Shown piece after piece: positions 5,271-26,294 of a stretch of 26,294 bases of DNA. Position numbers and translations under genes: made by a program. The stretch covers positions 1 to 26,294 of IMG/VR virus record IMGVR_UViG_2695420728_000009, one strand, 5' to 3'. This DNA comes from a virus. Taxonomy: Duplodnaviria > Heunggongvirae > Uroviricota > Caudoviricetes. The notes under the pieces are model-generated. The model did no database searches and was not told the origin of the DNA. It saw only the letters and a program-made list of their open reading frames with translations. Within the stretch, counting starts at the first letter, position 1. The number at the start of each line of letters is the position of its first letter.

Positions 5271-5291
5271 CCAGAGCGGGCCCTAATTTCA

Positions 5292-5675: not shown

Positions 5676-5686
5676 TGTATCCCCCT

Positions 5687-6028: not shown

Positions 6029-6037
6029 TGCTCCCCC

Positions 6038-7084
6038 TTAGCCAATGCGAACGGTAACAAAACGATTGATGCGGGCCGGTATTGGCTGTGGTGCTGAATG
6101 TGTCTGCACATATTCAATAGCCGGATCACCAGGCACAATATAGTTTTTCGGTGCAAGTTCGGCTTTAGTCAGCCCCATTCGGATTAGCTCCGGATCCTGA
6201 ATACCGCCATAGGCGACAATCCCCTGAAGAGCCGTATTGCCAAGCACCATCAAATCAGGATCAAGGAAATGTTTTTCAGTTCCGTCCTCGTCGGTATAAC
6301 GCCCGCTGTAAACAACAATCGCAACATCGCCCATATATCCTTTAAAACTCACCGAATCACCAAGGTCTTTAAGGGCCGTTTCCAGTTCGGAATTAGAACC
6401 ACGACGGGTATCCAGAGCCTCTTTTATCGCTCTGAATGAACGGTATTTCTTCCATACATTACCGCCCATAATGATGATATTAGTGACGCCCTCACTAAAT
6501 TCTGCGTAGCTCTCAATATCATCATTTGGATCAAAAGTTTCTTTATCCTTACCTGACCACTCAGTACCGCCAGACTGAGTGATGATATTTTGTGGTTTAA
6601 TATTCCAGTCCAGCTCATAACGTTCAATACCATCGCCCTCAATGATATTTTTCCCCGTTGTGATTGCCTGAACGGCAAGCCATTCAATACGTGCACGAAT
6701 AGCTTTAGCTTGATTTACAATCGCCTGTTTAACTTTAATATTACGCGCCCCAAAAGCATTGTATTGCTCAGGTGATACACCAGCAGGGCGCACAGCTAAC
6801 TTATTTGGATCAATGCTGCTTTTCGGCTTCATATAGCCTGGACGAATTGTTTTTGATTCGTACCCTTCGTCACGTGAAACTTTACTACCCACCATAGGAG
6901 AACAAAACGCTGCAATTGGGATATTTGGATCGTCGATTGTATCAAGAATAATATCGCGCGATCCAAACATTACCGAGCGAGTAAAAAACAAACTGGTAAA
7001 CAACGCATTTAGTTGTTTTTGTACATCTACAGCATTAACCACCTGTACAAGCTGGGTAGGCGAATATAAATCAACCATACGCAT
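6038..7084 (-). CDS. Major capsid protein, lambda gpE-like (diverged; roughly half identical by eye in the C-terminal region)
   Basis: ORF 6038..7291 aligns with lambda gpE over most of its length (e.g. ITQSGGTEWSGKDKETFDPNDDIESYA... versus ITQSGGTEWSKRDKSTYDPTDDIEAYA...; TRRGSNSELETA in both). Start set at ATG 7082..7084 (MRMVDLY, matching lambda MSMYTT). Starts at 7078 or 7099 are also possible; the longer N-terminal extension has no homology. Confidence 0.85.
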   Translation of the reverse strand: MRMVDLYSPTQLVQVVNAVDVQKQLNALFTSLFFTRSVMFGSRDIILDTIDDPNIPIAAFCSPMVGSKVSRDEGYESKTIRPGYMKPKSSIDPNKLAVRPAGVSPEQYNAFGARNIKVKQAIVNQAKAIRARIEWLAVQAITTGKNIIEGDGIERYELDWNIKPQNIITQSGGTEWSGKDKETFDPNDDIESYAEFSEGVTNIIIMGGNVWKKYRSFRAIKEALDTRRGSNSELETALKDLGDSVSFKGYMGDVAIVVYSGRYTDEDGTEKHFLDPDLMVLGNTALQGIVAYGGIQDPELIRMGLTKAELAPKNYIVPGDPAIEYVQTHSAPQPIPARINRFVTVRIG

Positions 7085-7252
7085 CCTCTTTGCATTCATT
7101 AAAAATAATTGTGGATATATGCTATCACCGATATTTGTCATGCGAACACATGCAACCGAGTGCAATGTTGTATAAAGTTTTGGGGTGACAACTTCAGTGC
7201 GGACAATTAGTGTTAATATCTTCACTCCCTTTGGTCGGGATTTATGTAGCAT

Positions 7253-7283
7253 GCCGGAAAATTTATTTTTTCCGGCTTTTTTT
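7253..7283 (+). terminator. Strong hairpin followed by a T-tract, oriented antisense to the surrounding minus-strand operon
   Basis: GCCGGAAAA-TTTATT-TTTTCCGGC (9-bp stem) followed by TTTTTTT at 7277..7283. No plus-strand gene lies upstream, so its role is unclear. Confidence 0.4.
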
Positions 7284-7294
7284 ATTGGCAATAT

Positions 7295-7744
7295 TTAAAA
7301 CGGGATATCATCTCCCCATTGCTCATTATCTCCCTCTGGTGGCTGGCTTCCTTGCTGATCTGCCTGTTGTTTTGCTCTGTTCAGTGCGTCAGTAGCCTGC
7401 CCCTGTTGGCCTTTTTTGCCGCCCGGTCGCACCGATCGCGCACTGATTACGCTGTCTGCGATAACCTGCCAGCCCTGCCGCGTTTCGCCGTTCTGTCCAG
7501 TCCACTGGCTCATCTGCATGTTACCCGCCACGCTCAGGAGTTCGCCTTTGTGATGCTTTGCCAGCGCGTCGGCTTGTCTGCCAAACGCCAGGACAGATAA
7601 CCACAACGTCGCCAGACCGTCATCCGACTGACTGCAGGGCAGTGATACCGCCATACGCGCCAGCGTCATGGGGGTGCCCTTGCTGGTCTGTTTTGTCTGC
7701 GGGTCGTCCACCAACCGCCCGTAAACTGATATTTGCGCCGTCAT
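7295..7744 (-). CDS. ssb: Single-stranded DNA-binding protein (SSB)
   Basis: 149-aa ORF with OB-fold-like N-terminus, Gly/Gln-rich linker and the characteristic acidic C-terminal tail ...DDIPF. Confidence 0.85.
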   Translation of the reverse strand: MTAQISVYGRLVDDPQTKQTSKGTPMTLARMAVSLPCSQSDDGLATLWLSVLAFGRQADALAKHHKGELLSVAGNMQMSQWTGQNGETRQGWQVIADSVISARSVRPGGKKGQQGQATDALNRAKQQADQQGSQPPEGDNEQWGDDIPF

Positions 7745-7998
7745 GCTGCCTGCTCTCCGGACTTAATATTGATTGTTGTCACTTCCTCCGCTTCAGCAAT
7801 CTCCCGTTCGGTCAGCGTGGCAAAGTTTGCAGCCGCCGTTGTCATGAATGCGCTTATCAGTTCGGGATGTGCTTTCGCGTATCCTTCCCCGGCGTTGCGG
7901 TCTATTGCCTTAATCGCCACCCTTAGCCAGTGTTCAGCCATATCAAGGGCGCGGTAATGTGGCTTTATATGTTTGTTCAGTTTTCCTGATGTGTGCAT
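7741..7998 (-). CDS. Hypothetical protein (85 aa), translationally coupled to ssb
   Basis: ORF overlaps the ssb start by 4 nt in the same operon; no family recognised. Confidence 0.45.
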   Translation of the reverse strand: MHTSGKLNKHIKPHYRALDMAEHWLRVAIKAIDRNAGEGYAKAHPELISAFMTTAAANFATLTEREIAEAEEVTTINIKSGEQAA

Positions 7999-8043
7999 TT
8001 TTATTTTTACCCCCTCGTTTAAAAAGTTTTTTGTGCACCACCA

Positions 8044-8274
8044 CCTTGTCTACCTTGTCTACCTGATTAGTTATCAGGCCAGTAATGGCGCGGGTTTCAG
8101 GGAGGTAGACAGCCCCAAATAGCTGTCTACCTCATCTCTACCCGTCTCCTTACCTGTCTACAAAAATGGGTAGATAAGGTAGATAACAGGTAGACAGTGA
8201 AAAATAGTTATCTACCTGCATTAATACATTGAAATAAAAGTATTTTCTTTCAGTCAGGTAGACAAGGTAGATAA
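8044..8274. repeat. Iteron array, GGTAGA(C/T)A in both orientations (10 or more copies); putative satellite origin of replication
   Basis: Copies of TGTCTACC / GGTAGACA / GGTAGATA at ~8046, 8055, 8103, 8123, 8153, 8169, 8178, 8190, 8208, 8257 and 8266, in a non-coding stretch immediately 3' of the primase-helicase gene. Confidence 0.7.
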
Positions 8275-8287
8275 CCATTGCCATTTT

Positions 8288-10039
8288 TTATAAAAACGCA
8301 TCGCAATCATCAGTAGTCGTTGCGTTGGTCTGCGTGACTCCCTTAACTTTTCGCGTAATATATTCATATCCGTAAACTTTCGCCGCTGACCTCATAGCCT
8401 TTCCGAACTCATTCACGCTCAAACATTTCCCCTTTCCTGTGTATGCCATGAAGGCCATATAGACACGGTAAAGGCTGTTTCTGGTCGTGTACTTCACGGT
8501 GTCACCACCACCGCCCATCATTAGCCCACGAGCTTCCTCCAGAAACTCCAGCGCCGCGCAAAGCTCAACAACCGGATCCGTTTGCTGCTTTATTGCCAGA
8601 GCTTCATCACCGTCACGCTGTTCCAGTAATAAAGCCCGTGCCTTTTCAGGGGCAGCAAAATTAGCCAGCAAGCGGCGGATAATTACGGGGATTTCTGCCG
8701 CTATCTTTTCCGGTAATTCCTTGTCTTTTTCGTCCTCCCTTACAATGTTGTCGAACCGGAAAATCACCCGACGGCGTGACACACCTCCGGCCCGTTCGGT
8801 AAAGATCATCGGGTCGTTATTGGTTGCCAGTACCACCGCCCTTATTATCGTCGTGAATCGCTTCTCATATTTCGGGTTAATTTCAACGGGATCGCCTCCC
8901 GTGATTTTCTTGATGCCCGTGCCTTCCCCCGTATATTTCGGCTGATCGGCAAGGACGATAAGACGACTCCCGACAACCTGCGCGCGCCCTCCTGCATCAT
9001 CGAGTGATGTCATCTCCGCGCTTACGGTGTTCTGTTTGCCAGCAAGCAGGGTGGCAATATGGGTAAATGTACTCTTACCGCTTCCCCCGTCTCCGGTGGC
9101 CTCAATGAACATCTGCCAGTCGTAGCGGTTCGCCATAATCATGTATAACGCGGCACATATACGCATCATCTTACGCGGGTCTTTTCTTGCAGCATGTTCA
9201 AGCCATTTATGGAAATTTGGCGCATTATCGCGGATGTTTTCCCCTGCTACTGGTGGCGTGTACTCAATGCCATTGTGCGTGGTGCTCCAGTGCTCCGGCG
9301 AGTGCGGAGAAAATTCCCCCGTTTTCAGGTTAAGCACACCATTAGTGAACGGTAGCAAATCACCGGACGGCTCCCCCATGGGGTCGGCAATAACTTTTAA
9401 CGCTTCCACGGCGTTATTGATTACACGTTTGCTGAACGTGGCCCTGTGCTCTGAATAGATCGCCACCATTTCGCGGCTCAGCTCCATTGTGCTGACCGGA
9501 CACCATACCCCGCCGCGCCATACGTGGACGATTTCACTTTCTGCATGAACACACACACCATCAAAGCGATCGGCAAGTAGTTGTGCACGTTCACTGTCTG
9601 CCATCTGTGAAAGTTGCGCCTTTTGCTTCGTCGGAAGATTAAGCACCAGACTTTCCCCACGCTCGCATTCCTCTTTGAGTCGCGGCAACTGCTCGGATAA
9701 ATCCACTGGGCTGGTGTCAGTAATCCCCGCGTATTCGTGTACGGTCTTCACTCCAGCCACAGCCAGTAACGTAACAATCTGCGTCATGCTGTGCTCTGTG
9801 ATATGTCCTGCGCGGTAAACACGCACACACTGACGATCTTCATCAATGATCCGGTAATCGGTGATATTTTTCAGTTGCTCATCAGCCAGCACGACAGGCG
9901 GCACATCGTCGGCGGCAATATGTTTACCCGCCCATTCCCGCCACTCTTTCGCATGGCTCCACGCATCACTACCTGCAAAGATGATTACCTCTGTCAGTCT
10001 GTCGCGTGGCTGTTTTTTTAAGTTCGGTGCCAGTTTCAT
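8288..10039 (-). CDS. Replication initiation protein: primase-helicase (P4 alpha-like C-terminal / D5_N-SF3 helicase type)
   Basis: 583-aa ORF with Walker A EATGDGGSGKST and the overall pattern of phage/plasmid primase P4-family C-terminal domains; N-terminal region resembles a toprim-like domain. Confidence 0.85.
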   Translation of the reverse strand: MKLAPNLKKQPRDRLTEVIIFAGSDAWSHAKEWREWAGKHIAADDVPPVVLADEQLKNITDYRIIDEDRQCVRVYRAGHITEHSMTQIVTLLAVAGVKTVHEYAGITDTSPVDLSEQLPRLKEECERGESLVLNLPTKQKAQLSQMADSERAQLLADRFDGVCVHAESEIVHVWRGGVWCPVSTMELSREMVAIYSEHRATFSKRVINNAVEALKVIADPMGEPSGDLLPFTNGVLNLKTGEFSPHSPEHWSTTHNGIEYTPPVAGENIRDNAPNFHKWLEHAARKDPRKMMRICAALYMIMANRYDWQMFIEATGDGGSGKSTFTHIATLLAGKQNTVSAEMTSLDDAGGRAQVVGSRLIVLADQPKYTGEGTGIKKITGGDPVEINPKYEKRFTTIIRAVVLATNNDPMIFTERAGGVSRRRVIFRFDNIVREDEKDKELPEKIAAEIPVIIRRLLANFAAPEKARALLLEQRDGDEALAIKQQTDPVVELCAALEFLEEARGLMMGGGGDTVKYTTRNSLYRVYMAFMAYTGKGKCLSVNEFGKAMRSAAKVYGYEYITRKVKGVTQTNATTTDDCDAFL

Positions 10040-10335
10040 TTTTTGCCCCTGAATGCGTTAATCATGCTTTTCATTTTCTGGATGTTTCCCCGCGCTTTTT
10101 CCCTGCTGATGGGCTTACTGCGGGGTGCGGCATATACCAGGGAAAAATCACGCCGGAACTGATAAACAGGCATCACGCAGTCATAGCTATACCCCTCACG
10201 GCGGTAAGTGATGCGCCGTTCTGCCACGCCTTTAATCGTTACCGTGCCGCCGTATTTATCGCGGTAAATATCGCCGTTCATAAATTCAGGCCGAGCGGGG
10301 CCGCTGGCAATAAAGCCAGAATTTTTCATTTCCAT
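10036..10335 (-). CDS. Hypothetical protein (99 aa), coupled to the primase-helicase gene
   Basis: 4-nt overlap with the primase start, same strand; no family recognised. Confidence 0.5.
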   Translation of the reverse strand: MEMKNSGFIASGPARPEFMNGDIYRDKYGGTVTIKGVAERRITYRREGYSYDCVMPVYQFRRDFSLVYAAPRSKPISREKARGNIQKMKSMINAFRGKK

Positions 10336-10352
10336 ATTATTTATTCCTCGAC

Positions 10353-10574
10353 TTAACTCGACTTATTTGATAGCAGGGCACTATTTATTGCGTCATTGAG
10401 TTTTTCTGCTGATTCATCAATAAGTGACAACAGGCCATAAGCAATATTTGCATCTTCATTGTCATTTATGCAATCAAGCCACATATTTAATATTGCTTTT
10501 GCTGAATTATTTAAAGTTAATGAACTTTCTGCACATGCTAACAATTTAAAAAAGACTTCCCGTTCTGTATTCAT
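10353..10574 (-). CDS. Hypothetical small protein (73 aa), AT-rich
   Basis: Compact in-operon ORF; no recognisable motif. Confidence 0.4.
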   Translation of the reverse strand: MNTEREVFFKLLACAESSLTLNNSAKAILNMWLDCINDNEDANIAYGLLSLIDESAEKLNDAINSALLSNKSS

Positions 10575-10766
10575 TTAATCCCCCACCAGCTTACTTTCTT
10601 CCTCAATCAGGAAACTAGCGACACTTCCCGAAAGGCGCGCCAGTAGGCTCGCCAGCGCGGATATATCAGCATCTGTAATTTTGTTCGGGTATACCTCAAG
10701 AAGGCGGCAAATAATTTCTGTCTGGTGCGCACGTTCAGCGGCTTCGTGTAATGTGATTTCCTGCAT
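10575..10766 (-). CDS. Hypothetical small protein (63 aa)
   Basis: Abuts the neighbouring ORFs with no gap; no recognisable motif. Confidence 0.4.
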   Translation of the reverse strand: MQEITLHEAAERAHQTEIICRLLEVYPNKITDADISALASLLARLSGSVASFLIEEESKLVGD

Positions 10767-10951
10767 TAATGCACCTCTTTTAATTCATACACTGCTGAAA
10801 TAATGACTTGTGATAAGCCATATTCTGATGATTCGCTTCTCACCGCAGCAATAGCCGTCTGAACATTAACAGCCTTCACGTTCTGAGTGATACCAATTGT
10901 GTGGCCCAGTGGGTTAACAGCTCGGGCAAATACACGGAAGGTTTTAAGCAC
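10766..10951 (-). CDS. Hypothetical small protein (61 aa)
   Basis: Tightly packed in the same operon; no recognisable motif. Confidence 0.35.
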   Translation of the reverse strand: MLKTFRVFARAVNPLGHTIGITQNVKAVNVQTAIAAVRSESSEYGLSQVIISAVYELKEVH

Positions 10952-11207
10952 GGCACACCTCCTGACGAATACGGGCGGCGAATATCATCACGTAGCCAGT
11001 TGGGGATTGCTGGCGGGCTTCCTGTTCGCTGGCGGCCTCGATGTGTATTACGCGTGGTTGTGCGGTGCTCAGGGCGATAAAACGCCAGATGTATTTATTC
11101 AGGTTGTGCGAATCCCGCCCTTGCGGGTGTGTGGTATGATTTCTCATAGCTACCTCGATACTGTTGCTATCGTTGGTGGTTAGACGCCCTGTATGTGTTG
11201 CGAGCAC
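10944..11207 (-). CDS. Hypothetical protein (87 aa or shorter), first gene of the leftward operon
   Basis: ORF begins just downstream of the divergent promoter region 11208..11286; an internal start (MRNHTTHP...) is possible. Confidence 0.35.
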   Translation of the reverse strand: MLATHTGRLTTNDSNSIEVAMRNHTTHPQGRDSHNLNKYIWRFIALSTAQPRVIHIEAASEQEARQQSPTGYVMIFAARIRQEVCRA

Positions 11208-11243
11208 TGCAGGGCGTTGTTATATAGCAATAAAACATGATAA

Positions 11244-11286
11244 GGTGTGTACCTATCAAGAATCATACTAAGCAATAGGTACACAC
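11244..11286. promoter_or_regulatory. Perfect 12-bp inverted repeat (GTGTGTACCTAT ... ATAGGTACACAC) in the divergent promoter region; candidate operator
   Basis: Arms at 11245..11256 and 11275..11286 separated by 18 bp; the right arm ends at the ATG of the RHH gene and overlaps its ribosome-binding site. Confidence 0.45.
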
Positions 11287-11481
11287 ATGTCAACTATCAT
11301 TCAACGTGATAAACAACCGAAAGGTGCAGGTAAAGCACCAGCATTCCAAGTCCGTATTAACCCAGAATTAAAAGAACAAATGGTTAATGTCGCTGCCAAA
11401 GAAGGGATGAGCTTAGGTAACTGGCTAAAAGAACTGGCTCGTGCCGAACTAATAAAACAAGGAATAACACCTAAAGGCTGA
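11287..11481 (+). CDS. Small ribbon-helix-helix-like DNA-binding protein (YlcI/YnfO-like pattern)
   Basis: 64-aa ORF; FQVRINPELKEQMVNVAAKEGMSLGNWLKELARAEL fits a beta-strand-helix-helix (Arc/MetJ-like) pattern and resembles the helper moron 21105..21338 (IRFPNQMIEQINIALDQKGYGNFSAWVIEACRRRL). Confidence 0.55.
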   Translation: MSTIIQRDKQPKGAGKAPAFQVRINPELKEQMVNVAAKEGMSLGNWLKELARAELIKQGITPKG

Positions 11482-11504
11482 TAATTTGCATAAAGGATTC
11501 TTCT

Positions 11505-12854
11505 ATGACAACAAGTCACAAAATGCTAGAAATCAGTAAAGAACAATTTGATGTATTTTTCTATGGTCGTACACCATACGTAAAAACCTTTTCGGAGGAA
11601 ATCTGTTGGTTCAAATTTATAAAGGATGATGTCACGATCTTAGCAACAATTGTTTTTTGTAAAATAGATAATGATTACAACGCTATATTTCTAGGTAGGG
11701 ATTTAGATAAAAAATTTAGAGCGATTAAAGTAATTGTATCCCGTGAATCTAAAGATGATTTAATTACTGATATGGAAAAAGCCATACCAGAGCTATTATC
11801 ACTACACAAGAACGGTTGTTTTATACAGGGTGACGAATCAGAGTCGGCATTTTCAATATTCCTAGCCAAAGTTCCAGAACATAAAAAAAACGTTTATCTA
11901 AGAATGCTACTTGAGGAACCCAAACACTATCCTGCATTTATTGTTATGCAAGAGTTAGCTTATTGGTGTAAAGATCCTGATGGAATATTCATCAGAGATT
12001 TCCAGAGTGCTTCATTTAACTCTCGCTTATTCGAACTTTATCTAAACGCAGTTTTCTACGAAATGGATTTCGTAATATGCAGAGATTATGCTCAACCTGA
12101 TTATATTATCTCAAAAAATGGCATTGATATTGCTGTAGAAGCTGCCACAGTTGCAGAACAAGAGGAACCTACCGAGAAATTGATACTTGATCATGAGGCA
12201 GTAGAAGATCTTCAGAGATATGTAAAAGAACAAATGCCATTCAAATTTGCCCGCACTCTATTAAAGAAAGTTAGGCATAAACCTGAACCCTTAAAATTAT
12301 GCTATTGGGAACTAGATCATACAAAAGGAAAGCCTTTCATTATTGCTTTACACGATTACTCACGCAGATTTTCGATGAGTATATCAATGCCAGCACTACA
12401 AAGCTATCTGTATGGTGTAGATATGGATTCTGGAAGTAAAATTGAACAACATTTATTTGAAAATCGAAGTATACAATCTAATTTTTTCGGCTCTAATAAA
12501 AATGAGAATGTCTCAGCCATATTACTTGCGACACATGCCACCATCCCAAAATTTGATAGGATGGGAGTAGTGGCAGGGATTGAACAAAAAAATGTCAAAT
12601 CCATCGTTAGAGGTATTAAAACTGATGAAGGCTGTACCCCAATGCCTTTTACTGCTCTTGTCAATGCACCTTCATATCAAGAACCATGGTGTACAGCAAT
12701 ATACATGTTTCATAATCCGAAGGCATTAAATCCTATACGCCCTGAATTATTCCCAAGAGTTATTCATATTTTTGAAGAAGATGGAGAAATAGTTCAATAC
12801 TTACCACCTAATTATATAATCTCATCAACTACGCACGTATTTGAATTTAAGTGA
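11505..12854 (+). CDS. Large unknown protein (449 aa), AT-rich cargo; candidate defence or toxin effector
   Basis: Long clean ORF 23 bp downstream of the RHH gene; very low GC compared with flanking satellite genes. No family recognised by eye; a weak PD-(D/E)xK-like stretch (QPDYIISKNGIDIAVEAA) is noted without confidence. Confidence 0.7.
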   Translation: MTTSHKMLEISKEQFDVFFYGRTPYVKTFSEEICWFKFIKDDVTILATIVFCKIDNDYNAIFLGRDLDKKFRAIKVIVSRESKDDLITDMEKAIPELLSLHKNGCFIQGDESESAFSIFLAKVPEHKKNVYLRMLLEEPKHYPAFIVMQELAYWCKDPDGIFIRDFQSASFNSRLFELYLNAVFYEMDFVICRDYAQPDYIISKNGIDIAVEAATVAEQEEPTEKLILDHEAVEDLQRYVKEQMPFKFARTLLKKVRHKPEPLKLCYWELDHTKGKPFIIALHDYSRRFSMSISMPALQSYLYGVDMDSGSKIEQHLFENRSIQSNFFGSNKNENVSAILLATHATIPKFDRMGVVAGIEQKNVKSIVRGIKTDEGCTPMPFTALVNAPSYQEPWCTAIYMFHNPKALNPIRPELFPRVIHIFEEDGEIVQYLPPNYIISSTTHVFEFK

Positions 12855-12859
12855 TTTCA

Positions 12860-12886
12860 AATCCTATGGGTTTACCCCATAGGATT
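12860..12886. terminator. 11-bp perfect-stem hairpin between convergent genes (449-aa cargo and alpA)
   Basis: AATCCTATGGG-TTTA-CCCATAGGATT at 12860..12886, 6 bp after the cargo stop codon. Confidence 0.5.
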
Positions 12887-12905
12887 ACATCCACTGTCTA
12901 AATTC

Positions 12906-13127
12906 TTACCACTCTCCCCTAATCCATGCCTGCACTTCTGAAAGACGATATGCAACAGCAGTGGAACCAATCTTGATCCGCTTAGGAAATTTTCCTTCCT
13001 TCTCCAGCTTCCAGCGTGTGCTGTTCGCAAGAGTGGTTAGCTCCCGACATTCTTTCTCACGGATCATACGATCGATATTAGGAATGTACTCCAGACCCTT
13101 TTTATCGACAATTGCCATTTTTTTCAT
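12906..13127 (-). CDS. alpA: AlpA-family transcriptional regulator / excisionase-like protein
   Basis: 73-aa ORF; RELTTLANSTRWKLEKEGKFPKRIKIGSTAVAYRLSEVQAWI matches the AlpA HTH signature; immediately downstream of int on the same strand. Confidence 0.85.
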   Translation of the reverse strand: MKKMAIVDKKGLEYIPNIDRMIREKECRELTTLANSTRWKLEKEGKFPKRIKIGSTAVAYRLSEVQAWIRGEW

Positions 13128-13128
13128 G

Positions 13129-14364
13129 TTAACCAGCCTTTTGTTTGAGGATTGTCACTTTTGAATCAGCACCTGCGATGCTATTGAGATATGTAGTCCA
13201 GAGTTCCAGAGCATCCAGTTTTTTAGCCATAAACTTACTCCGGTTGTAAACACCTGCCACGCCAGGTAGCGCATGGCCTAACAGTTGTTCTACTACATAA
13301 AATTCAACACCGAGATCACTTAGATGAGTAGATAGCGTTCTTCTAAGGTCGTGTAGTGACCATTGTTTTTCATGGCCCAAACGTTTACCGATTTTCCCCC
13401 CAATCTTGCTTACGCTTTCTCTAATTCGCAGACTTCCCAGCACATAACCAGTATGTTTTGTCTCTTCGTGAACATCCGTTACCCACTGTCGTAGAATTTC
13501 AGGTACTGGTCTGACGATTTCAACACCAGTTTTTGAGTGATCTTTTGGTACAGTCCAAACCCAACTTTCGAGATCCCATTCGCTCCATTCTGATAATCGG
13601 GCTTCACTCATTCGACATCCAAATACTGTACAAAGCACAAACATTTTTCGCGTGTATTCAGACATTAGTTTTAAATCAGGCTCGACAAAAATTGCCTTCC
13701 AGAGCTGGCCGAGTTCGGCTTCATCCAGAACCCGATCCCGCTTACCTGCAATCTGCCCCACATCACTCATGCGCAAATCCTTTAAAGCATCACACGTCGC
13801 GTACTGGCGTACCCGACAAAAACGAAGAGCTAATTTAGTGTCAGAAAAAACATACGCCGCCATAACTGGTGCATTACGTTTAATTCGGTCAAAACAGTCC
13901 AGCCATTCATATAGGTGAGTGTCATTTACGGGCAAATGACCGATATAGGGAAAGATATGCTTTCGAAATCTGCCAAGCGTTACAGCATGAGTTTTACGAC
14001 GCACCTTACAGTAATTTTCATACCAGTAATTTAGTGCATCCTCCACTGTGACCGGCTTTAAGCGTTCTTCAGCCTGAATCTTAATCTGGATACGCGGATC
14101 ACGTTTGTCAGCCAACCAACCACGGCACTCGTCGCGCTTTTCCCTTGCCTGTTTGAGTGACATATCAGGATATTTACCCAACGTTAGCCAGACCGGAGCA
14201 GCCCGGCCACCTGCTAACCTGTAGAAGAAAACAAAGCTCACAGCCCCTTTAGTACTCACACGAATAGAAAGCCCCTTTCCATCAGCAATGGTGATCTGCT
14301 TTTCTCTGGGTTTCCCCAGATATCCTTTAAGCGCTTTGTCGCTCAGTTTGTTCTCGCCAGCCAT
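13129..14364 (-). CDS. int: Tyrosine site-specific integrase (P4-type)
   Basis: N-terminus MAGENKLSDKALKGYLGKPREKQITIADGKGLSIRVSTKG... typical of the P4-integrase N-terminal domain; C-terminal catalytic region with HDLRRT and LLGH motifs and a Tyr-containing tail. Start set at ATG 14362..14364; the 17 upstream codons are extension. Confidence 0.9.
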   Translation of the reverse strand: MAGENKLSDKALKGYLGKPREKQITIADGKGLSIRVSTKGAVSFVFFYRLAGGRAAPVWLTLGKYPDMSLKQAREKRDECRGWLADKRDPRIQIKIQAEERLKPVTVEDALNYWYENYCKVRRKTHAVTLGRFRKHIFPYIGHLPVNDTHLYEWLDCFDRIKRNAPVMAAYVFSDTKLALRFCRVRQYATCDALKDLRMSDVGQIAGKRDRVLDEAELGQLWKAIFVEPDLKLMSEYTRKMFVLCTVFGCRMSEARLSEWSEWDLESWVWTVPKDHSKTGVEIVRPVPEILRQWVTDVHEETKHTGYVLGSLRIRESVSKIGGKIGKRLGHEKQWSLHDLRRTLSTHLSDLGVEFYVVEQLLGHALPGVAGVYNRSKFMAKKLDALELWTTYLNSIAGADSKVTILKQKAG

Positions 14365-14379
14365 TTTTAGCCCCAAAAA

Positions 14380-14399
14380 GCAATACAAGCTGCAATACA
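14380..14399 (+). promoter_or_regulatory. Second tandem pair of GCAATACA motifs (12-bp period); candidate integrase arm-type sites / int promoter region
   Basis: GCAATACA at 14380..14387 and TGCAATACA at 14391..14399; same motif, spacing and orientation as the pair at 3425..3445. Confidence 0.35.
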
Positions 14400-14526
14400 G
14401 AGATGATTGCAACACACAGATAACGAGGAAAATTCAGTGAAAGCACCAGATAAACTTATTCTTTATTATCAAAAGATTAAGTGTAAAAACCAGCAACTAC
14501 ACGAAAGCCTCAGAAAGCCATGCTAA

Positions 14527-14772
14527 GTGCTTCGGCTTGACATATCCCGGTGTAAATTCAGAGGTGGAGCCGCCACGGGAGCGGATAACCTCACCGGAAA
14601 CAATCGGCGAAACGTACAGCGCCATGTTTACCAGTCCCGGAATTTGTGAGAGATAGACTTTCTCCGTGGTGAAGGGATAGCTCTCACGGAAAAAGAGACG
14701 CAGAAACAGCGGATCAAACTTAAATTTCTTCTCATTTGCCGCCAGCAGCTGGGCGGTTGTGTACATCGACAT
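14527..14772 (-). pseudogene. E: 5' fragment of major capsid gene E (codons 1-82), truncated by the element
   Basis: From ATG 14770..14772: MSMYTTAQLLAANEKKFKFDPLFLRLFFRESYPFTTEKVYLSQIPGLVNMALYVSPIVSGEVIRSRGGSTSEFTPGYVKPKH matches the lambda gpE N-terminus, then reads into element sequence (LAWLSEAFV, stop at 14497). Confidence 0.9.
14528..14537. repeat. Right copy of the 10-bp direct repeat TGCTTCGGCT (attR-type core)
   Basis: Exact match to 3339..3348; E homology ends at 14527. Confidence 0.75.
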
Positions 14773-14827
14773 AAAAAAATCCCGTAAAAAAAGCCGCACA
14801 GGCGGCCTTTAGTGATGAAGGGTAAGG

Positions 14828-15160
14828 TTAAACGATGCTGATTGCCGTTCCGGCAAACGCGGTCCGTTTTTTCGTCTCGTCGCTGGCAGCCTCCGGCCAG
14901 AGCACATCCTCATAACGGAACGTGCCGGACTTGTAGAACGTCAGCGTGGTGCTGGTCTGGTCAGCATCAACCGCCAGAATGCCAACGGCAGTACCGTCGG
15001 TGGTGCCATCCCACGCAACCAGCTTACGGGTGGAGGTGTCCAGCATCAGCGGGGTCATTGCAGGCGCTTTCGCACTCAATCCGCCGGGCGCGGTTGCCGT
15101 ATGTGCCGGGTCACTGTTGCCCAGCGGCTGGTAATGGGTAAAGGTTTCTTTGCTCGTCAT
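14828..15160 (-). CDS. D: Head decoration protein D
   Basis: Matches lambda gpD ([12 protein letters not shown]...AGTAISIV, 110 aa); start at the third ATG of the called ORF. Confidence 0.93.
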
Positions 15161-15169
15161 AAACATCCC

Positions 15170-16469
15170 TTACACTGGTGTGTTCAGCAAATCGTTAACG
15201 GCATCAGATGCCGGGTTACCTGCAGCCAGCGGTGCCGGTGCCCCCTGCATCAGACGATCCAGCGCAGTGTCACTGCGCGCCTGTGCACTCTGTGGTGCAG
15301 CTGCCAGAATGCGGCGGGCCGTTTCCACGGTCATACCGGGGGTTTCTGCCAGCACGCGGGCCTGTTCTTCGCGTCCGTGAGCCTCCTCACAGTTGAGGAT
15401 CCCCATAATGCGGCTATTTTCTGCCGCAACCGCAGCGGTGATCTGCGCGTTCACGTCCGGCTGCGCCGCGCTGGCGTTTTCGCCCTCCGTCGCTGGCACC
15501 ACGTCAGTAACGTCAGTCTGCGAAGCAGTGGCTGAAACAGTTGTTGATTGAGTCTCTTTGGTCATTCGTCCTCCTGAGAGACGGGATTTACGCGCATCCA
15601 GTGCATCACGCATGACGGTGATCGCATCGGTGCTGTTAACAAGTTCATCAGCCAGTCCGGCATCAATGGCCTCCTGACCGCTGTACACTGCAGCCTCGGT
15701 ATCCAGCACAGCCTGCACAGACAGGCCGGTATATGCCGACACCTTCTGCGCAAACATCTGGCGGGTTGCGTCCATCCGGGACTGCAGTGTCTCCCGGACG
15801 TCATCCGGAAGATGGCTGTAGGGATTGCCATCCACCTTATGGCTGCCGCTGTAAATCAGCGTGATTTCCACACCCTGTTTCTCCAGGGCAGCACCGTAAT
15901 TACTGTGAGCCATCATGACGCCGATGGAGCCTGTCCGGGCGGTCTGCGTGACCAGACGCCGGGAGGCGGCACTGGCAAGCAGCTGACCTGCACTGCAGTT
16001 CATGTCGTTGGCCAGCGCCCATACCGGTTTTATGTCTCGCACACGGGCGATGATGTCAGCGCAGTCAAATGCCCCCGCCACCATTCCGCCTGGCGTGTCC
16101 ATATCGAGCAGAATGCCGTCCACCATCGGGTCGCTGGCAGCCTGTTGCAGACGGGCGATAATGCCGTTGTAACCGGTCATCCCCGAGTACGGCTGCAGCG
16201 CCCGCGTCCGGCTGACCAGCGTGCCGGACACCGGCAGCACGGCGATGCCGTTCATGACCTGATAACTGCGGGCCTGTCGTGGTCCGTCATCATCACCGGA
16301 TAATGCCAGCGTCGCGAGTGCCTCCTGGGCAGTCAGGCTGTCGCCGGACACCGCATCCGTCAGGCGGCTGATCCCAAGCTGGCCTGCAAGCGCACAAAAG
16401 AAAACCCGCGCATAGGCGGGTTCAAGCATCAGCGGCTCATTAAAGGCCATGCTGGCAATATGCGGGAGA

Positions 16470-16489
<20 letters not shown>
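15170..16489 (-). CDS. C: Head protease/scaffold protein C (Nu3 scaffold presumably nested in-frame in its 3' portion, as in lambda)
   Basis: Matches lambda gpC (TAELRNLPHIASMAFNEPLMLEPAYARVFF...). Start assigned to GTG 16487..16489 preceded by GGAGGAGAAGA; the upstream part of the called ORF overlaps the end of B. Confidence 0.88.
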
Positions 16490-20170
<3,681 letters not shown>

Positions 20171-20196
<26 letters not shown>

Positions 20197-20716
20197 TCAG
20201 CAACCCCGGTATCAGTTCATCCAGCGCGGCTGCTTTGTTCATGGCTTTGATGATATCCCGTTTCAGGAAATCAACATGTCGGTTTTCCAGTTCCGGAAAA
20301 CGCCGCTGCACCGACAGGGGGATCCCGTCGAGAATACTGGCAATTTCACCTGCGATCCGCGACAACACGAAAGTACAGAATGCGGTTTCCACCACTTCAG
20401 CGGAGTCTCTGGCATTCTTCAGTTCCTGTGCGTCGGCCTGCGCACGCGTAAGTCGATGGCGTTCGTACTCAATAGTCCCTGGCTGGAGATCTGCCTCGCT
20501 GGCCTGCCGCAGTTCTTCAACCTCCCGGCGCAGCTTTTCGTTCTCAATTTCAGCATCCCTTTCGGCATACCATTTTATGACGGCGGCAGAGTCATAAAGC
20601 ACCTCATTACCCTTGCCACCGCCTCGCAGAACGGGCATTCCCTGTTCCTGCCAGTTCTGAATGGTACGGATACTCGCACCGAAAATGTCAGCCAGCTGCT
20701 TTTTGTTGACTTCCAT
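20171..20716 (-). CDS. Nu1: Terminase small subunit Nu1 (helper copy)
   Basis: 181-aa translation matches lambda Nu1 throughout (MEVNKKQLADIFGASIRTIQNWQEQGMPVLRGGGKGNEVLYDSAAVIKWYAERD...SEYIEQSG). Confidence 0.95.
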
Positions 20717-20940
20717 TGTTCATTCCACGGACAAAAACAGAGAAAGGAAACGACAGAGGCCAAAAAGCTCGCTTTCAGCACCTGTCGTTTCCTTTCTTTT
20801 CAGGGGGTATTTTAAATAAAAACATTAAGTTACGACGAAGAAGAACGGAAACACCTTAAACCGGAAAATTTTCATAAATAGCGAAAACCCGCGAGGTCGC
20901 CGCCCCGTAACCTGTCGGATCGCCGGAAAGGACCCGCAAA
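20717..20940 (-). other. cos: cos site of the helper prophage (cosB R-sites plus cosN cohesive-end sequence at 20894..20905)
   Basis: Reverse complement of 20894..20905 is GGGCGGCGACCT, the lambda 12-nt cohesive end, flanked by ...CGCG and CGTAACCTGTCGGATCGCC... as at the lambda genome ends. R-type sites (CTGTCGTTTCCTTTCT, AGAAAGGAAACGACAG) lie between cosN and the Nu1 start. Confidence 0.88.
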
Positions 20941-21104
20941 ATGATAATAATTATCATCTGCATGTCACAACGTGCATCTACGCCATCAAACCACGTCAAA
21001 TAATCAATTATGACGCAGGTATCATATTAATTGATCTGCATCAACTTAACGTAAAAACAACTTCAGACAATACAAATCAGCGACACTAAATACGGGACAA
21101 CCTC

Positions 21105-21338
21105 ATGTCAACGAAGAACAGAACCCGCAGAACAACAATCCGCAACATCCGCTTTCCTAACCAAATGATTGAACAAATTAACATCGCTCTTGATCAAAAA
21201 GGGTACGGGAATTTCTCAGCCTGGGTCATTGAAGCCTGCCGCCGGAGACTGTGCTCAGAAAAAAGAGTTTCTCCTGAAGCAAACAAAGAAAAGAGTGACA
21301 TTACTGAATTGCTCAGAAAACAGATCAGACCAGATTGA
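21105..21338 (+). CDS. YlcI/YnfO-family small protein (RHH-like), prophage moron
   Basis: 77-aa ORF MSTKNRTRRTTIRNIRFPNQMIEQINIALDQKG... resembles E. coli cryptic-prophage YnfO/YlcI proteins as I recall them; opposite strand to the late operon, at the bor-like position next to cos. Confidence 0.6.
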   Translation: MSTKNRTRRTTIRNIRFPNQMIEQINIALDQKGYGNFSAWVIEACRRRLCSEKRVSPEANKEKSDITELLRKQIRPD

Positions 21339-21394
21339 AGCAATTTAGATAATCGTGCAGACTACGCCCCTCATATCACATGGAAGGTACTACA

Positions 21395-21805
21395 ATGGCT
21401 CAGGTTGCCATTTTTAAACAAATATTCGATAAAGTGCGAAATAATTTAAACTATCACTGGTTTTATTCTGAACTAAAACGTCACAATGTCTCACATTACA
21501 TTTACTATTTAGCTACAGAGAATATTCATCTTGTTCTTGAAAACGATAATACGGTTTTAATAAAAGGACAGGGTAAGGTTGTAAATGTAAGATTTTCAAA
21601 AAATAAATGCCTTATAGAAGCCACCTTAAAAGGATTCAAATCAGGAGAGTTATCATTTTACGAATACAGGAAAAATCTTGCTACAGCAGGGGTTTTCAGA
21701 TGGATTACAAATATCCACGAAAACAAAAGGTATTACTATACCTTTGATAATTCATTACTCTTTACTGAGAACATTCAGAACACTACACAAATATTTCCGC
21801 ACTAA
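21395..21805 (+). CDS. YdfO-like protein (DUF1398 family), prophage moron
   Basis: Translation ...[55 protein letters not shown]...[25 protein letters not shown] closely resembles E. coli Qin-prophage YdfO as I recall it. Start placed at the second ATG (21395), which has a GGAAGG ribosome-binding site; 21380 is the alternative. Confidence 0.62.
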
Positions 21806-22061
21806 ATCATAACGTCCGGTTTCTTCCGTGCCAGAACCGGACTCGCTGGCATGATGAAATATGTGTACCCGGTAACCCCGGTGTGCATCGTTTTTGATTA
21901 TTCCCGCACACTCGCGCAGAAGGAGTTCCCCGTCGGGCTACGGTCTCTGTTAATACGGGAATACGGCGACGATACAGCGCATGATGTGTCAGGCTTGAAT
22001 ACCTTTATCCTTTAAAAGGGATATCAGTTAAGTTATCCCGTGTAGGGTATAAACCATTATC

Positions 22062-22090
22062 AAAGCCACTCTGTAGGAAGTGGCTTTTGT
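22062..22090 (+). terminator. Rho-independent terminator downstream of the YnfO-like/YdfO-like pair
   Basis: AAGCCACT-CTGTAGGA-AGTGGCTT hairpin followed by TTGT. Confidence 0.45.
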
Positions 22091-22296
22091 AATGGCAATA
22101 AAAAGCCCCGCGAATGCGAGGCTAAATCCTGGTATTTGTAATGACTGGCTCTTATCTCAACGCAGCCCCTTACCGCGCGCAAAATGCTCAATATCAAGCA
22201 TCAGCAATGAGATGTTTAATCTGGATTCACTCCAGAAGTGAGCACCACCCTGTCTACAGAGCCAGATGTGAAGGATGATGAGTAAAATTATCGCTA

Positions 22297-22764
22297 TCAT
22301 CGAAGGCATTGCGTCCTGATGTATTCCTGAAGCGTTCTCAGTGCTGTTTGGTCGCGGATAATTCCGTCCCGGACACCGAGAACGTTTCGTCCAGCAACTG
22401 GAGAGAGTTCGACGGTGGCATCATTGCCCATGCCGGAGGCGCTGGAGGTTTCGGCTGAGGATGGCACAGGGCATTTTCCTTTGACGAACACCCGACCACC
22501 ATTATCAAGCTTGCGCCGAAGAGCATCATTTTCAGCTTTCGCATCAGCTAACTCCTTCGTGTATTTATCATCGAGTGCATCAGCATCACGCTGGCGCTGC
22601 TGCATGTCAGTAATGGTGGCGTTCGCCTTCTCCAGTTCACTGGCCTTGTTATCGCGCTGTTCTTTGTAGGCGATTGCATTATCACGGTAATGATTAACAG
22701 CCCATGACAGGCAGACGATGATGCAGATAACCAGAGCGGAGATAATCGCGGTTACCCTGCTCAT
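22297..22764 (-). CDS. Rz: Rz i-spanin (inner-membrane spanin subunit)
   Basis: N-terminal transmembrane segment ([19 protein letters not shown]) followed by a coiled-coil periplasmic domain; its start ATG overlaps the endolysin stop (ATGA). Position is canonical, downstream of the endolysin. Confidence 0.85.
22338..22544 (-). CDS. Rz1: Rz1 o-spanin (outer-membrane lipoprotein), embedded out of frame within Rz
   Basis: 68-aa ORF wholly inside Rz in another frame; signal peptide with lipobox-like ...MVVGCSS and a proline-rich mature region ([16 protein letters not shown]) as in lambda Rz1. Confidence 0.7.
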
Positions 22765-23258
22765 TGTTGCCCCCACAAACAGACCTCACGCTCAATCTCA
22801 CGACGAGTCATCAGGCCTTTCCATTGCTTACCGCCAGCGTATGCCCAGCGACGTAGCTGGTCACATGCGCCCTTGATATCGCCCTGGTTTATTTTGCGAA
22901 GAAGAGTAGATGTTCTGAAATTGCCTGCGCCCACGTTATAGACGAACGAGTAAAGAGCGCCGCGCGTTGTTTCCGGTATATCGACTTTGATGTACGGGTT
23001 AATTTGTCTGGCTACCGTGGCAAGGTCTTTATTCAGGAGGGCTTTGCATTCTGCTTCGGTATACGTTTTACCGGGAATGATGTCTTTTCCTGTATGCCCG
23101 TGACATACAGTCCATACGCCAACGATATCTTTGTATGGTATGTAGCTGACACCTTCCAGACCATCGTTACCACTTGGGCCAGTGATTAACACTGATGCTA
23201 TAGCAATTGCTCCGCCACCAATAGCAGCAGCAACGGCTTTTCGTAATGATGGAGGCAT
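22761..23258 (-). CDS. R: SAR endolysin (phage-21 R-type lysozyme)
   Basis: 165-aa ORF with an N-terminal Gly/Ala-rich signal-anchor-release segment ([18 protein letters not shown]) followed by a T4-lysozyme-like catalytic region ([10 protein letters not shown]...[11 protein letters not shown]). Confidence 0.88.
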
Positions 23259-23389
23259 TATTCACCTCTCGCAGCCTTGCGCTTATCTTCTTTAATCTTG
23301 AAATAAAGGTTTGTCAGGTACGTCAGCAGGCCAAATACCAAGCTACCCAGCACACCTATTGCTGCCCACTGTGAGGGCGTGACTTTATC
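23258..23389 (-). pseudogene. 3' remnant (C-terminal ~43 codons) of a pinholin gene (S21/EssD-like), truncated at the IS66 left end
   Basis: In-frame translation [43 protein letters not shown] matches the C-terminal two-thirds of EssD/S21-type pinholins as I recall them; its stop overlaps the endolysin start (TAATG). Homology ends exactly at the IS terminus 23390. Confidence 0.72.
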
Positions 23390-23474
23390 GTAAGCGTAAA
23401 CTGACCGCCGTATGTAGCCATCAGACGAGAATTGGTAACTTAGACGCCCATCTGATATAGACGGACATCTAAGT

Positions 23475-23900
23475 ATGGAATTACAGGACTGGCGAAAAGA
23501 ACCTCGTAAAAACTATTCGAATGAATTCAAACTTCGTATGGTGGAACTGGCATCACAACCTGGAGCTTGTGTTGCACAGATTGCACGTGAAAATGGCGTC
23601 AATGATAATGTTATTTTCAAATGGCTCAGGCTCTGGCAGAACGAAGGGCGTGTTTCGCGGCGTCTTCCGGTAACGACCTCTTCTGACACTGGCGTTGAAT
23701 TATTACCTGTAGAAATAACGCCGGATGAGCAGAAAGAACCTGTGGCGGCCATTGCGCCGTCTTTATCCACTTCCACTCAGACCAGAGTCAGTGCCAGTTC
23801 CTGCAAGGTGGAATTCCGTCACGGTAACATGACGCTGGAAAATCCATCGCCAGAGCTGCTCACAGTGTTGATCCGTGAACTGACCGGGAGGGGAAGATGA
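23475..23900 (+). CDS. tnpA: IS66-family orf1 (TnpA, HTH protein)
   Basis: 141-aa ORF; first of three IS66 ORFs; stop overlaps the tnpB start (ATGA). Confidence 0.8.
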
Positions 23901-24247
23901 TCTCACTCCCATCAGGTACCCGTATCTGGCTCGTTGCCGGCGTTACCGATATGCGTAAATCCTTCAACGGACTGGGAGAACAGGTACAACATGTGCTGAA
24001 TGATAATCCCTTCTCCGGTCACCTGTTTATCTTCCGTGGCCGACGGGGTGACACCGTCAAAATTCTTTGGGCTGATGCTGATGGTCTGTGCCTGTTCACC
24101 AAACGCCTGGAGGAAGGCCAGTTTATCTGGCCTGCGGTACGTGACGGCAAGGTATCCATTACCCGCTCGCAACTGGCAATGCTCCTCGATAAGCTGGACT
24201 GGCGTCAGCCAAAAACATCCAGCCGTAACTCACTGACAATGTTGTAA
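23897..24247 (+). CDS. tnpB: IS66-family orf2 (TnpB accessory protein)
   Basis: 116-aa [55 protein letters not shown]... typical of IS66 Orf2. Confidence 0.85.
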   Translation: MISLPSGTRIWLVAGVTDMRKSFNGLGEQVQHVLNDNPFSGHLFIFRGRRGDTVKILWADADGLCLFTKRLEEGQFIWPAVRDGKVSITRSQLAMLLDKLDWRQPKTSSRNSLTML

Positions 24248-24277
24248 AAAACTCCTGACCGCATTATAAAAACGGTC

Positions 24278-25891
24278 ATGAGTCAGAAATACCTCATTCG
24301 CATCGCAGAGCTGGAAAGGTTGCTCTCTGAGCAGGCTGAAGCCCTCCGTCAGAAAGACCAGCAACTGAGTCTGGTTGAAGAGACGGAAGCCTTCCTGCGC
24401 TCTGCACTGACACGTGCCGAAGAAAAGATCGAAGAAGATGAACGGGAAATAGAACATCTGCGGGCTCAGATAGAAAAACTGCGCCGGATGCTGTTCGGTA
24501 CCCGTTCTGAAAAACTGCGTCGTGAAGTTGAACTGGCTGAGGCTCTGCTGAAACAACGTGAACAGGACAGCGATCGTTACAGTGGGCGGGAAGACGATCC
24601 TCAGGTTCCCCGCCAGTTGCGACAGTCGCGCCATCGTCGTCCGTTACCGGCACACCTTCCCCGTGAAATACACCGCCTGGAGCCAGAAGAAAGCTGTTGC
24701 CCGGAGTGTGGCGGTGAGCTGGATTATCTGGGGGAAGTCAGCGCTGAACAGCTGGAACTGGTGAGCAGTGCCCTGAAAGTGATCCGCACAGAACGGGTAA
24801 AAAAAGCCTGTACAAAATGTGACTGTATTGTTGAAGCACCGGCGCCGTCCCGCCCGATAGAGCGTGGTATCGCGGGCCCCGGATTACTTGCCCGCGTGTT
24901 AACGGGAAAATACTGCGAACATCTGCCACTGTATCGTCAGAGTGAAATCTTTGCCCGCCAGGGTGTCGAACTGAGCCGGGCCTTACTCTCCAACTGGGTT
25001 GACGCGTGCTGCCAGTTAATGACACCGGTGAATGATGCCCTGTACCGTTATGTAATGAACACCCGCAAGGTTCACACTGATGACACACCGGTAAAGGTAC
25101 TGGCACCGGGTCAGAAAAAGGCGAAAACAGGGCGTATCTGGACGTATGTCCGGGATGATCGCAATGTGGGTTCGTCATCTCCTCCAGCGGTCTGGTTCGC
25201 GTACTCGCCGAACCGGCAGGGGAAACACCCGGAGCAACACCTCCGCCCCTTCCGGGGTATCCTGCAGGCGGATGCGTTCACAGGTTACGACAGGTTGTTC
25301 AGTGCAGAACGTGAAGGTGGTGCACTGACAGAAGTTGCGTGCTGGGCCCATGCCCGGCGAAAAATCCACGATGTATACATCAGCAGCAAAAGTGCGACGG
25401 CAGAAGAAGCCCTGAAGCGAATCAGTGAACTGTACGCCATCGAGGATGAAATACGGGGATTACCGGAGTTAGAGCGTCTTGCCGTCAGGCAGCAGCGAAG
25501 CAAAGTGTTACTGACGTCGCTGCATGAATGGATGGTGGAGAAGAATGGTACGCTGTCGAAAAAATCCAGACTGGGCGAAGCGTTCAGCTATGTACTGAAT
25601 CAGTGGGATGCCCTCTGTTATTACAGTGATGACGGTCTGGCGGAGGCGGATAATAATGCTGCGGAAAGAGCGCTTCGTGCAGTCTGTCTCGGAAAGAAAA
25701 ACTTTATGTTCTTTGGCAGCGATCACGGCGGCGAGCGTGGAGCACTGTTGTACGGGCTGATCGGCACCTGCCGTCTGAACGGTATCGATCCGGAAGCGTA
25801 TCTGCGCCATATCCTGAGCGTACTGCCGGAATGGCCTTCCAACCGAGTTGATGAACTCCTGCCATGGAACGTAGTACTCACCAATAAATAA
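24278..25891 (+). CDS. tnpC: IS66-family transposase (orf3, TnpC)
   Basis: 537-aa ORF with N-terminal coiled-coil/leucine-zipper region, CxxC...CxxC zinc-finger-like motif (CPECGG...CTKCDC) and DDE-type catalytic core typical of IS66 transposases. Confidence 0.9.
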   Translation: MSQKYLIRIAELERLLSEQAEALRQKDQQLSLVEETEAFLRSALTRAEEKIEEDEREIEHLRAQIEKLRRMLFGTRSEKLRREVELAEALLKQREQDSDRYSGREDDPQVPRQLRQSRHRRPLPAHLPREIHRLEPEESCCPECGGELDYLGEVSAEQLELVSSALKVIRTERVKKACTKCDCIVEAPAPSRPIERGIAGPGLLARVLTGKYCEHLPLYRQSEIFARQGVELSRALLSNWVDACCQLMTPVNDALYRYVMNTRKVHTDDTPVKVLAPGQKKAKTGRIWTYVRDDRNVGSSSPPAVWFAYSPNRQGKHPEQHLRPFRGILQADAFTGYDRLFSAEREGGALTEVACWAHARRKIHDVYISSKSATAEEALKRISELYAIEDEIRGLPELERLAVRQQRSKVLLTSLHEWMVEKNGTLSKKSRLGEAFSYVLNQWDALCYYSDDGLAEADNNAAERALRAVCLGKKNFMFFGSDHGGERGALLYGLIGTCRLNGIDPEAYLRHILSVLPEWPSNRVDELLPWNVVLTNK

Positions 25892-25921
25892 GCGTCAATA
25901 CGGTGCTCCGTTGACGCTTAC

Positions 25922-26075
25922 GAGCAGCCGGATAATGTTCCAGGAACTGCCAGTGAAATTTTGCTCGAGCACGGCGTTCGTCGCCAGCTTCAATGGCTGT
26001 GGCTACAGCCACAGCGCCTTCTTCCCTTGTTGCCAGTTCGTCAGGAATAGCGGCGCAAATAAAGACTTTACTCAT
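25922..26075 (-). pseudogene. 5' fragment (51 codons) of an unidentified prophage gene, interrupted at the IS66 right end
   Basis: From ATG 26073..26075 the frame reads MSKVFICAAIPDELATREEGAVAVATAIEAGDERRARAKFHWQFLEHYPAA and then runs into the IS terminal repeat. Family not recognised. Confidence 0.4.
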
Positions 26076-26168
26076 TTTGTTTTAACCTCATGACAGATTT
26101 AAGGATGAACAAATCCCTGCCATTGCTGGCATATAAGAATGAAACCGGATATTTATTACGGAACTGTT

Positions 26169-26294
26169 TTAAAGACCTGCCGGGATTTCGATATTATCCT
26201 GGTGAATAACTTTATCGACCGGGTAACAGTTACCGGGAATTTTCTGTTCGGTTGCTGCAGTCACACACTCCTGCATTGTCCTGTGAACACTGAC
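26169..26294 (-). CDS. 3' end of an unidentified gene entering from the right window edge
   Basis: Only open frame on the minus strand at the window edge (...CVTAATEQKIPGNCYPVDKVIHQDNIEIPAGL, stop at 26169..26171). Partial and unidentified. Confidence 0.3.
   Translation of the reverse strand, partial: VSVHRTMQECVTAATEQKIPGNCYPVDKVIHQDNIEIPAGL

Follow-up and report, generated by a model that had tools for sequence, protein, structure and literature searches.

An ISEc23 copy without a target-site duplication in a draft prophage contig: most likely two ordinary insertions linked by the assembly

Introduction

How does an insertion sequence (IS) whose known copies are bordered by 8-bp target duplications come to lie between two unlike flanks? 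The question is raised by a copy of ISEc23, an IS66-family element common in E. coli, that splits the holin gene of a defective, lambda-like prophage in IMG/VR record IMGVR_UViG_2695420728_000009 (26,294 nt; hereafter the window, to whose full length all coordinates refer). The window is the whole of contig CYAF01000042.1 of the short-read draft assembly GCA_001285745.1. An earlier note, made from the sequence alone, had proposed that an IS-associated deletion or rearrangement removed the 5' end of the holin gene and probably the late-control region upstream of it. Our analyses point to a different answer, namely two independent, canonical ISEc23 insertions between which scaffolding made a link across a collapsed repeat, a reading to which we assign a probability of about 0.77.

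ISEc23, holins of the S21 type, the knock-out of prophage genes by an IS and assembly chimeras induced by repeats are all familiar, and nothing that we describe departs from them. As another IS knock-out in an already defective prophage, the case has little biological weight. Its lesson is one of method: when an IS in a short-read draft contig lacks a target-site duplication, a linkage artefact is the first thing to suspect, and here a matching simple insertion in a closed genome settled the ancestral state.

Results and Discussion

The element occupies 23390-25921 (plus strand; 2532 bp) and is identified as ISEc23 by the RefSeq annotation of near-identical copies. It begins with GTAAGCGTAAAC and ends with GTTGACGCTTAC; its imperfect terminal inverted repeats (26 nt, 85%) begin GTAAGCG, and the terminal repeats are placed at 23390-23413 and 25898-25921. 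The three open reading frames (ORFs) typical of the family are all present: tnpA (23475-23900; helix-turn-helix, Pfam HTH_Tnp_1), tnpB (23897-24247; Pfam TnpB_IS66) and tnpC (24278-25891), which encodes a 537-aa DDE transposase with leucine zipper and zinc finger (Pfam LZ_Tnp_IS66, zf-IS66, DDE_Tnp_IS66). Only two positions distinguish the window element from three RefSeq-annotated ISEc23 copies. The ORFs, the Pfam domains and the RefSeq copies thus confirm the IS66-family assignment of the earlier note and narrow it to ISEc23.

In complete RefSeq genomes, perfect 8-bp duplications border 8/8 ISEc23 copies, and the ends of these copies are the same as those in the window. The window copy is like known ISEc23 in size, in its GTAAGCG...CGCTTAC ends and in its set of tnpA, tnpB and DDE tnpC; unlike the eight RefSeq copies, and unlike the insertion in the complete genome CP010238.1 described below, it has no 8-bp duplication in this record. 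The octamers at its borders are ACTTTATC on the left (23382-23389) and GAGCAGCC on the right (25922-25929), so that the inequality noticed earlier is real. Relative to the known copies, the missing duplication is most likely a linkage artefact. Wrongly set IS ends are ruled out as its cause by the eight RefSeq copies together with CP010238.1. We found nothing in the literature on ISEc23 and on the IS66 mechanism that relates to insertions without a target-site duplication.

To the left of the IS lies the 3' remnant of an essD gene, which encodes a class II holin (pinholin) of the S21 family (23258-23389, minus strand; codons 29-71 plus the stop codon). Its translation, DKVTPSQW...KAARGE, agrees at every position with residues 29-71 of EssD (71 aa; 100% identity) and matches Pfam Phage_holin_2_1 (PF04971); by sequence, the remnant belongs to the S21-type pinholins. 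Residues 1-28, which comprise the start codon(s) and the first of the two transmembrane segments of a complete pinholin, are absent from the window. The homology stops exactly at 23389/23390, the interruption falling after codon 28-31. The earlier description of a pinholin gene that ends at the left IS terminus, with ~43 C-terminal codons left and neither the first transmembrane segment nor the start codon adjacent to them, is therefore accurate.

The left flank has a close counterpart in a complete genome. Using a 72-aa product that is encoded in the window and belongs to a protein cluster of holin-IS fusions, we found CP010238.1 (4.80 Mb), which lies outside the set of 5,426 complete RefSeq E. 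coli genomes that we searched. CP010238.1 is 99.96% identical to the window over 13258-25921 and diverges from it exactly at the right end of the IS (25921/25922). In the orientation of the window, its junctions read ...GTGACTTTATC/GTAAGCG...CGCTTAC/ACTTTATCGAGCAGCTGTAAAA... (slashes mark borders). The insertion is the one seen in the window, likewise oriented, and ACTTTATC is perfectly duplicated around it, which marks the window octamer at 23382-23389 as the left copy of this target duplication; directly beyond the IS lies the N-terminal part of the holin gene, followed by three moron genes, the Q antiterminator gene, ylcG, rusA and nin genes. Because the octamer ACTTTATC stands on both sides of the holin insertion in CP010238.1, the failure to find a duplication concerns this record and not ISEc23. 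Because the upstream region is also present there, the ancestral state is a simple insertion, which by itself leaves both the 5' end of the holin gene and the late-control region in place.

These observations bear directly on the deletion model of the earlier note, in which an IS-promoted adjacent deletion, or an intramolecular transposition starting from the right end of the IS, would have fused the element to the gene on its far side. The contig shows no duplication and has an unrelated gene beyond the IS, as this model has it. However, CP010238.1 keeps both copies of the duplication and an intact upstream region. In this closest complete relative we find an 8-bp duplication as well as the holin 5' end nearby, the two features that the note itself had held to be incompatible with a deletion. 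The proposed losses are not upheld: the 5' end follows directly past the IS and the Q antiterminator region lies beyond it. Together with the evidence from peptides and sister assemblies given below, this makes a deletion very unlikely.

The other part of the split holin gene is on record as well. The predicted 31-aa N-terminal remnant, which ends ...LLDKV and takes its stop codon from the GTAA of the IS end, was found on 24 contigs, and its V11I variant (the form in CP010238.1) on 496 contigs; N-terminal remnants that end at the IS on hundreds of contigs argue against a deletion. Some ENA protein accessions of the V11I variant (CTT34386, CTT45031) lie ~1,400-2,400 numbers from those of an exonuclease-IS ORF at the right IS border (CTT35756, CTT47408). 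That both lie this close in one CTT series is weak evidence that they co-occur in one assembly and, to that extent, also speaks against a deletion. The peptide predicted for a holin junction free of the duplication has no entry among the proteins on record, and a homology search with the full-length holin returned, among the matches listed, full-length clusters only. None of the 5,426 complete RefSeq E. coli genomes contained either of the two window junctions or the predicted reciprocal holin junction, and exact-pattern scans of JGI metagenomes and GTDB representatives gave 0 matches to the reciprocal junction.

The right flank has a different origin. As the earlier note had stated, the DNA beyond the IS is the 5' end of a gene unrelated to the holin; we find that it comprises codons 1-51 of a lambdoid prophage gene for an 823-aa exonuclease (25922-26075, minus strand; YdfE_N domain; annotated as 'exonuclease' or 'exonuclease VIII'). 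The gene starts at 26075 and, as assembled, reads into the IS to give a 65-aa ORF (25878-26075). Next to it is the 3' part of ydfD (26169-26294, minus strand; Pfam DUF1482; ydfD in complete genomes), which is cut by the contig end. Over its whole length (25922-26294), the right flank matches intact int-xis-exo-ydfD-dicB regions of eight complete genomes with 100% identity, and the intact exonuclease gene reads ...GTCCT GAGCAGCC GGATAATG. The octamer GAGCAGCC is native exonuclease-gene sequence, and it would most likely represent the right-hand duplicate at the target of another ISEc23 insertion, separate from that in the holin gene. The flank CC/GGATAATG agrees with the loose right-flank pattern of other ISEc23 sites, which is consistent with a normal, separate transposition into the exonuclease gene.

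The left flank is late-region DNA from a lambda-like prophage that has a DLP12-type lysis cassette; the right flank comes from a Qin/Rac-like prophage, from the dicB-ydfD-exo operon on its pL side. In NZ_CP027140.1, a complete genome, separate prophages carry the two flanks, one at ~0.56 Mb and the other at 4.32 Mb, and in no reference are the holin and exonuclease flanks contiguous. An origin in different prophages is a further point against a deletion. A similar truncation exists in E. coli K-12, where ydfE of the Qin prophage, an exonuclease gene fragment beside an IS, is the same gene of the dicB-ydfD-exonuclease operon truncated near its 5' end. In K-12, the IS and its position are different, whereas here ISEc23 stands at codon 51 with target GAGCAGCC.

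We observe both junctions in other assemblies, where they occur independently of each other. The ORF across the junction of the truncated exonuclease gene (exo') with the IS is present on eight contigs, that of the window and seven others. In four sister assemblies, this junction lies on a mini-contig of 333-593 bp that ends 64-87 nt within the IS, and in another it extends 1.5 kb into the IS; its detachment from the holin in these assemblies again argues against a deletion. In CYEE01000083.1 (3390 bp), a full IS connects the exo' junction to a fragment of nleB/sseK, with the flank TGGAGGTT and no duplication. This fragment (L006, 3310-3390) ends in the terminus of what we take, from its end sequence, to be an IS1, and the small flank is bounded by repeats on both sides. 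The ORF across the holin-IS junction is present on 23-27 contigs from several projects; the eight that are shown besides the window contig break off after 65-590 nt of IS sequence.

In the sister assemblies, at least three different flanks adjoin identical IS sequence, with contigs breaking inside the IS. The IS sequences of the window, of CYEE01000083.1 and of every partial sister copy have 0 mismatches and, because the copies are identical, no copy-specific variant could guide an assembler across 2.5 kb. The repeat is multi-copy, identical and, under an assumed library span, longer than that span, as in a collapsed repeat. The case resembles known collapsed-repeat and scaffolding chimeras in that a full-length, multi-copy IS has unrelated short flanks whose partners vary among sister assemblies, in that other junction contigs end inside the IS, and in that N-joins are found in sister records; it is different in that the window itself has no N or mark of a join. 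Such N-joins occur in CYGP01000061.1 and CYFA01000056.1, which belong to the same accession series and where single Ns join segments of the terminase region that overlap or are repeated, with 98-99% identity. The joins lie at 4513 and 6028 in L017 and at 4119 and 8050 in L018, between overlapping or triplicated terminase segments. Because single-N joins link overlapping or duplicated prophage segments, both are scaffolded, gap-filled records in which different prophage copies have been mixed by wrong scaffolding.

The same junctions could arise by real homologous recombination between ISEc23 copies in essD and in the exonuclease gene, in which case the contig would be correct. The window would then hold an inversion, translocation or duplication junction, and the chromosome would carry the reciprocal hybrid exoRest-GAGCAGCC-IS-ACTTTATC-holinN at another place. 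Hybrid flanks are the exact product of such an exchange, which involves the same four junction sequences as two insertions linked by the assembly; moreover, the holin and exo' junctions co-occur in at least four sister assemblies, the window has no N or visible join, and IS-rich E. coli pathotypes rearrange at IS copies. However, short reads cannot bridge an identical repeat of 2.5 kb, CYEE01000083.1 ties the same exo' junction to nleB, and the sole complete genome with the holin insertion (CP010238.1) shows the simple form. In the layout of NZ_CP027140.1, a single genome, the flanks are co-oriented and ~1 Mb (or 3.8 Mb) apart, which suggests that such a junction could form there only through a deletion that the cell would not survive or through a duplication of very large size. 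With essentially no information on linkage in the contig, recombination between IS copies deserves its prior probability only, and we regard it as unlikely.

A further class of explanation starts from a sequence match at the right IS border. The seven bases GAGCAGC (25922-25928) recur just past the break point in intact essD (L022, 13094-13100): the intact holin gene reads ACTTTATC/GAGCAGCTG, the intact exonuclease gene GTCCT/GAGCAGCCGG and the window IS/GAGCAGCCGG. A single event guided by this 7-bp identity could have been microhomology-assisted joining or a target choice by the IS66 transposase that was influenced by the flank. In a version in which the contig is correct, the identity would be mechanistic in a rearrangement of ISEc23 influenced by flank homology; if true, it would have joined the dicB-ydfD-exo' early operon of one prophage to a late region, 'essD-rrrD-Rz, from a second prophage that carries the satellite. 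However, all one-step models that we tried leave an extra copy of ACTTTATC or GAGCAGC and fail to give the observed structure, and none of them requires the identity; the other ISEc23 sites are canonical (8/8), and a GC-rich, codon-like 7-mer is commoner in coding DNA than 4^-7. We consider a single guided event extremely unlikely, and its contig-correct version no less so, and we treat the identity as a coincidence. Target-site preference was also rejected as the cause of the match; a loose consensus exists, but its register does not explain it.

The reading that we favor is that of two insertions and one artificial link. In this E. coli lineage, one ISEc23 copy would have inserted into the essD holin gene of the lambda-like prophage at ACTTTATC, and another, independently, at GAGCAGCC in codon 51 of the exonuclease gene, which belongs to the early-left operon of another prophage, a Qin/Rac-like one. 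On the assumption of a typical short-read library insert, the 2.5-kb IS would exceed its reach, and assembly and scaffolding would have placed one IS sequence between the holin-side flank and a 373-bp exonuclease-side mini-contig. The product would be a record that resembles a single IS without target duplication. The reciprocal junctions would read CGCTTAC/ACTTTATCGAGCAGCTG on the holin side and GTCCTGAGCAGCC/GTAAGCG on the exonuclease side. We infer that the linkage across the IS is artificial in this particular record.

Several points weigh against two insertions joined by the assembly. The reciprocal junctions (IS/ACTTTATC-holinN and exoRest-GAGCAGCC/IS) are predictions for the isolate behind GCA_001285745.1, and there is no N at the IS borders of the window. 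The 7-nt match GAGCAGC between the right IS end and the intact holin gene is, under this reading, a coincidence that the model does not explain, with a naive probability of ~6e-5. Finally, neither a homology search nor an exact look-up recovered the predicted IS-exonuclease fusion protein, the exact guess of its sequence being limited by the variability of the exonuclease (67 differences between two genomes).

The consequence for lysis is the same whatever the linkage. The remnant adjoins an intact, rrrD-like endolysin gene (22761-23258, minus strand; 165 aa; Pfam Phage_lysozyme; rrrD in complete-genome annotation), which is followed by an rzpD-like gene for an Rz-type spanin (22297-22776, minus strand; Pfam Phage_lysis; 'lysis protein' in 99.8%-identical complete genomes). 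The alanine/glycine-rich N-terminus of the endolysin presumably makes it a signal-anchor-release (SAR) type resembling that of phage 21 R. The gene order is that of the lysis cassette of phage 21 and DLP12 (S21 pinholin essD, SAR endolysin rrrD, Rz rzpD), and the window cassette is 99.8% identical to the essD-rrrD-Rz cassettes of complete genomes; it differs in that the IS splits the holin gene after the first transmembrane segment, so that just the second segment and the C-terminal part adjoin the endolysin gene. Because of this split, no functional holin stands ahead of the endolysin and Rz genes. We conclude that the holin is broken and that the prophage has lost holin-timed lysis; as regards the holin, the earlier expectation of a non-functional lysis cassette agrees with our analysis.

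Additional observations

The octamers at ISEc23 sites (L001-L004, L026-L029 and the window) often end TTAC(C), like the IS terminus ...CTTAC, and in many cases GGAT(A/G) comes next, as in CGTTTACC/GGATAATG. This pattern, from 9-10 sites, suggests that ISEc23 may have a target preference. Independent ISEc23 copies are also found in or just upstream of the lysis cassettes of other lambdoid prophages in complete genomes (L002, L003 and L004). One of them lies inside a DUF1327 gene between essD and rrrQ and two lie upstream of holin genes, each with its own 8-bp duplication.

Independently of the IS, the prophage carries an integrase-bearing satellite of 11,179 bp (3349-14527) inside its major capsid gene E. 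The satellite is bordered by 10-bp repeats, TGCTTCGGCT, at 3339-3348 and 14528-14537, and splits E into an N-terminal part of 83 codons that ends near 14537 and a C-terminal part at 2558-3334; in an island-free relative (L016), E is intact. With its capsid gene interrupted in this way, the prophage is defective regardless of the IS. The satellite encodes an integrase, two AlpA-family proteins, a D5_N primase-helicase, a DUF4222 protein and a single-stranded DNA-binding protein, as well as its own homologues of capsid protein E and decoration protein D and a Nu1-like small terminase. Its match in the literature is '11capE', a helper-embedded phage-inducible chromosomal island (PMC10111431). The satellite junction was found in 172 complete E. 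coli genomes.

A direct repeat of 532 bp (97% identity) connects the nu1-like region of the satellite (4736-5267) with the nu1/cos region of the prophage (~20406-20937). Sister contig L019 jumps across this repeat and omits ~15 kb, which reflects either a genuine deletion by recombination or a further shortcut of the assembly. The satellite also carries anti-phage cargo: a 449-aa ORF (11505-12854, plus strand) has no Pfam match and matches PADLOC PD-T7-1 with E=1e-153, and a 301-aa DUF2971 protein (3483-4388, plus strand) matches the candidate system PDC-S31.

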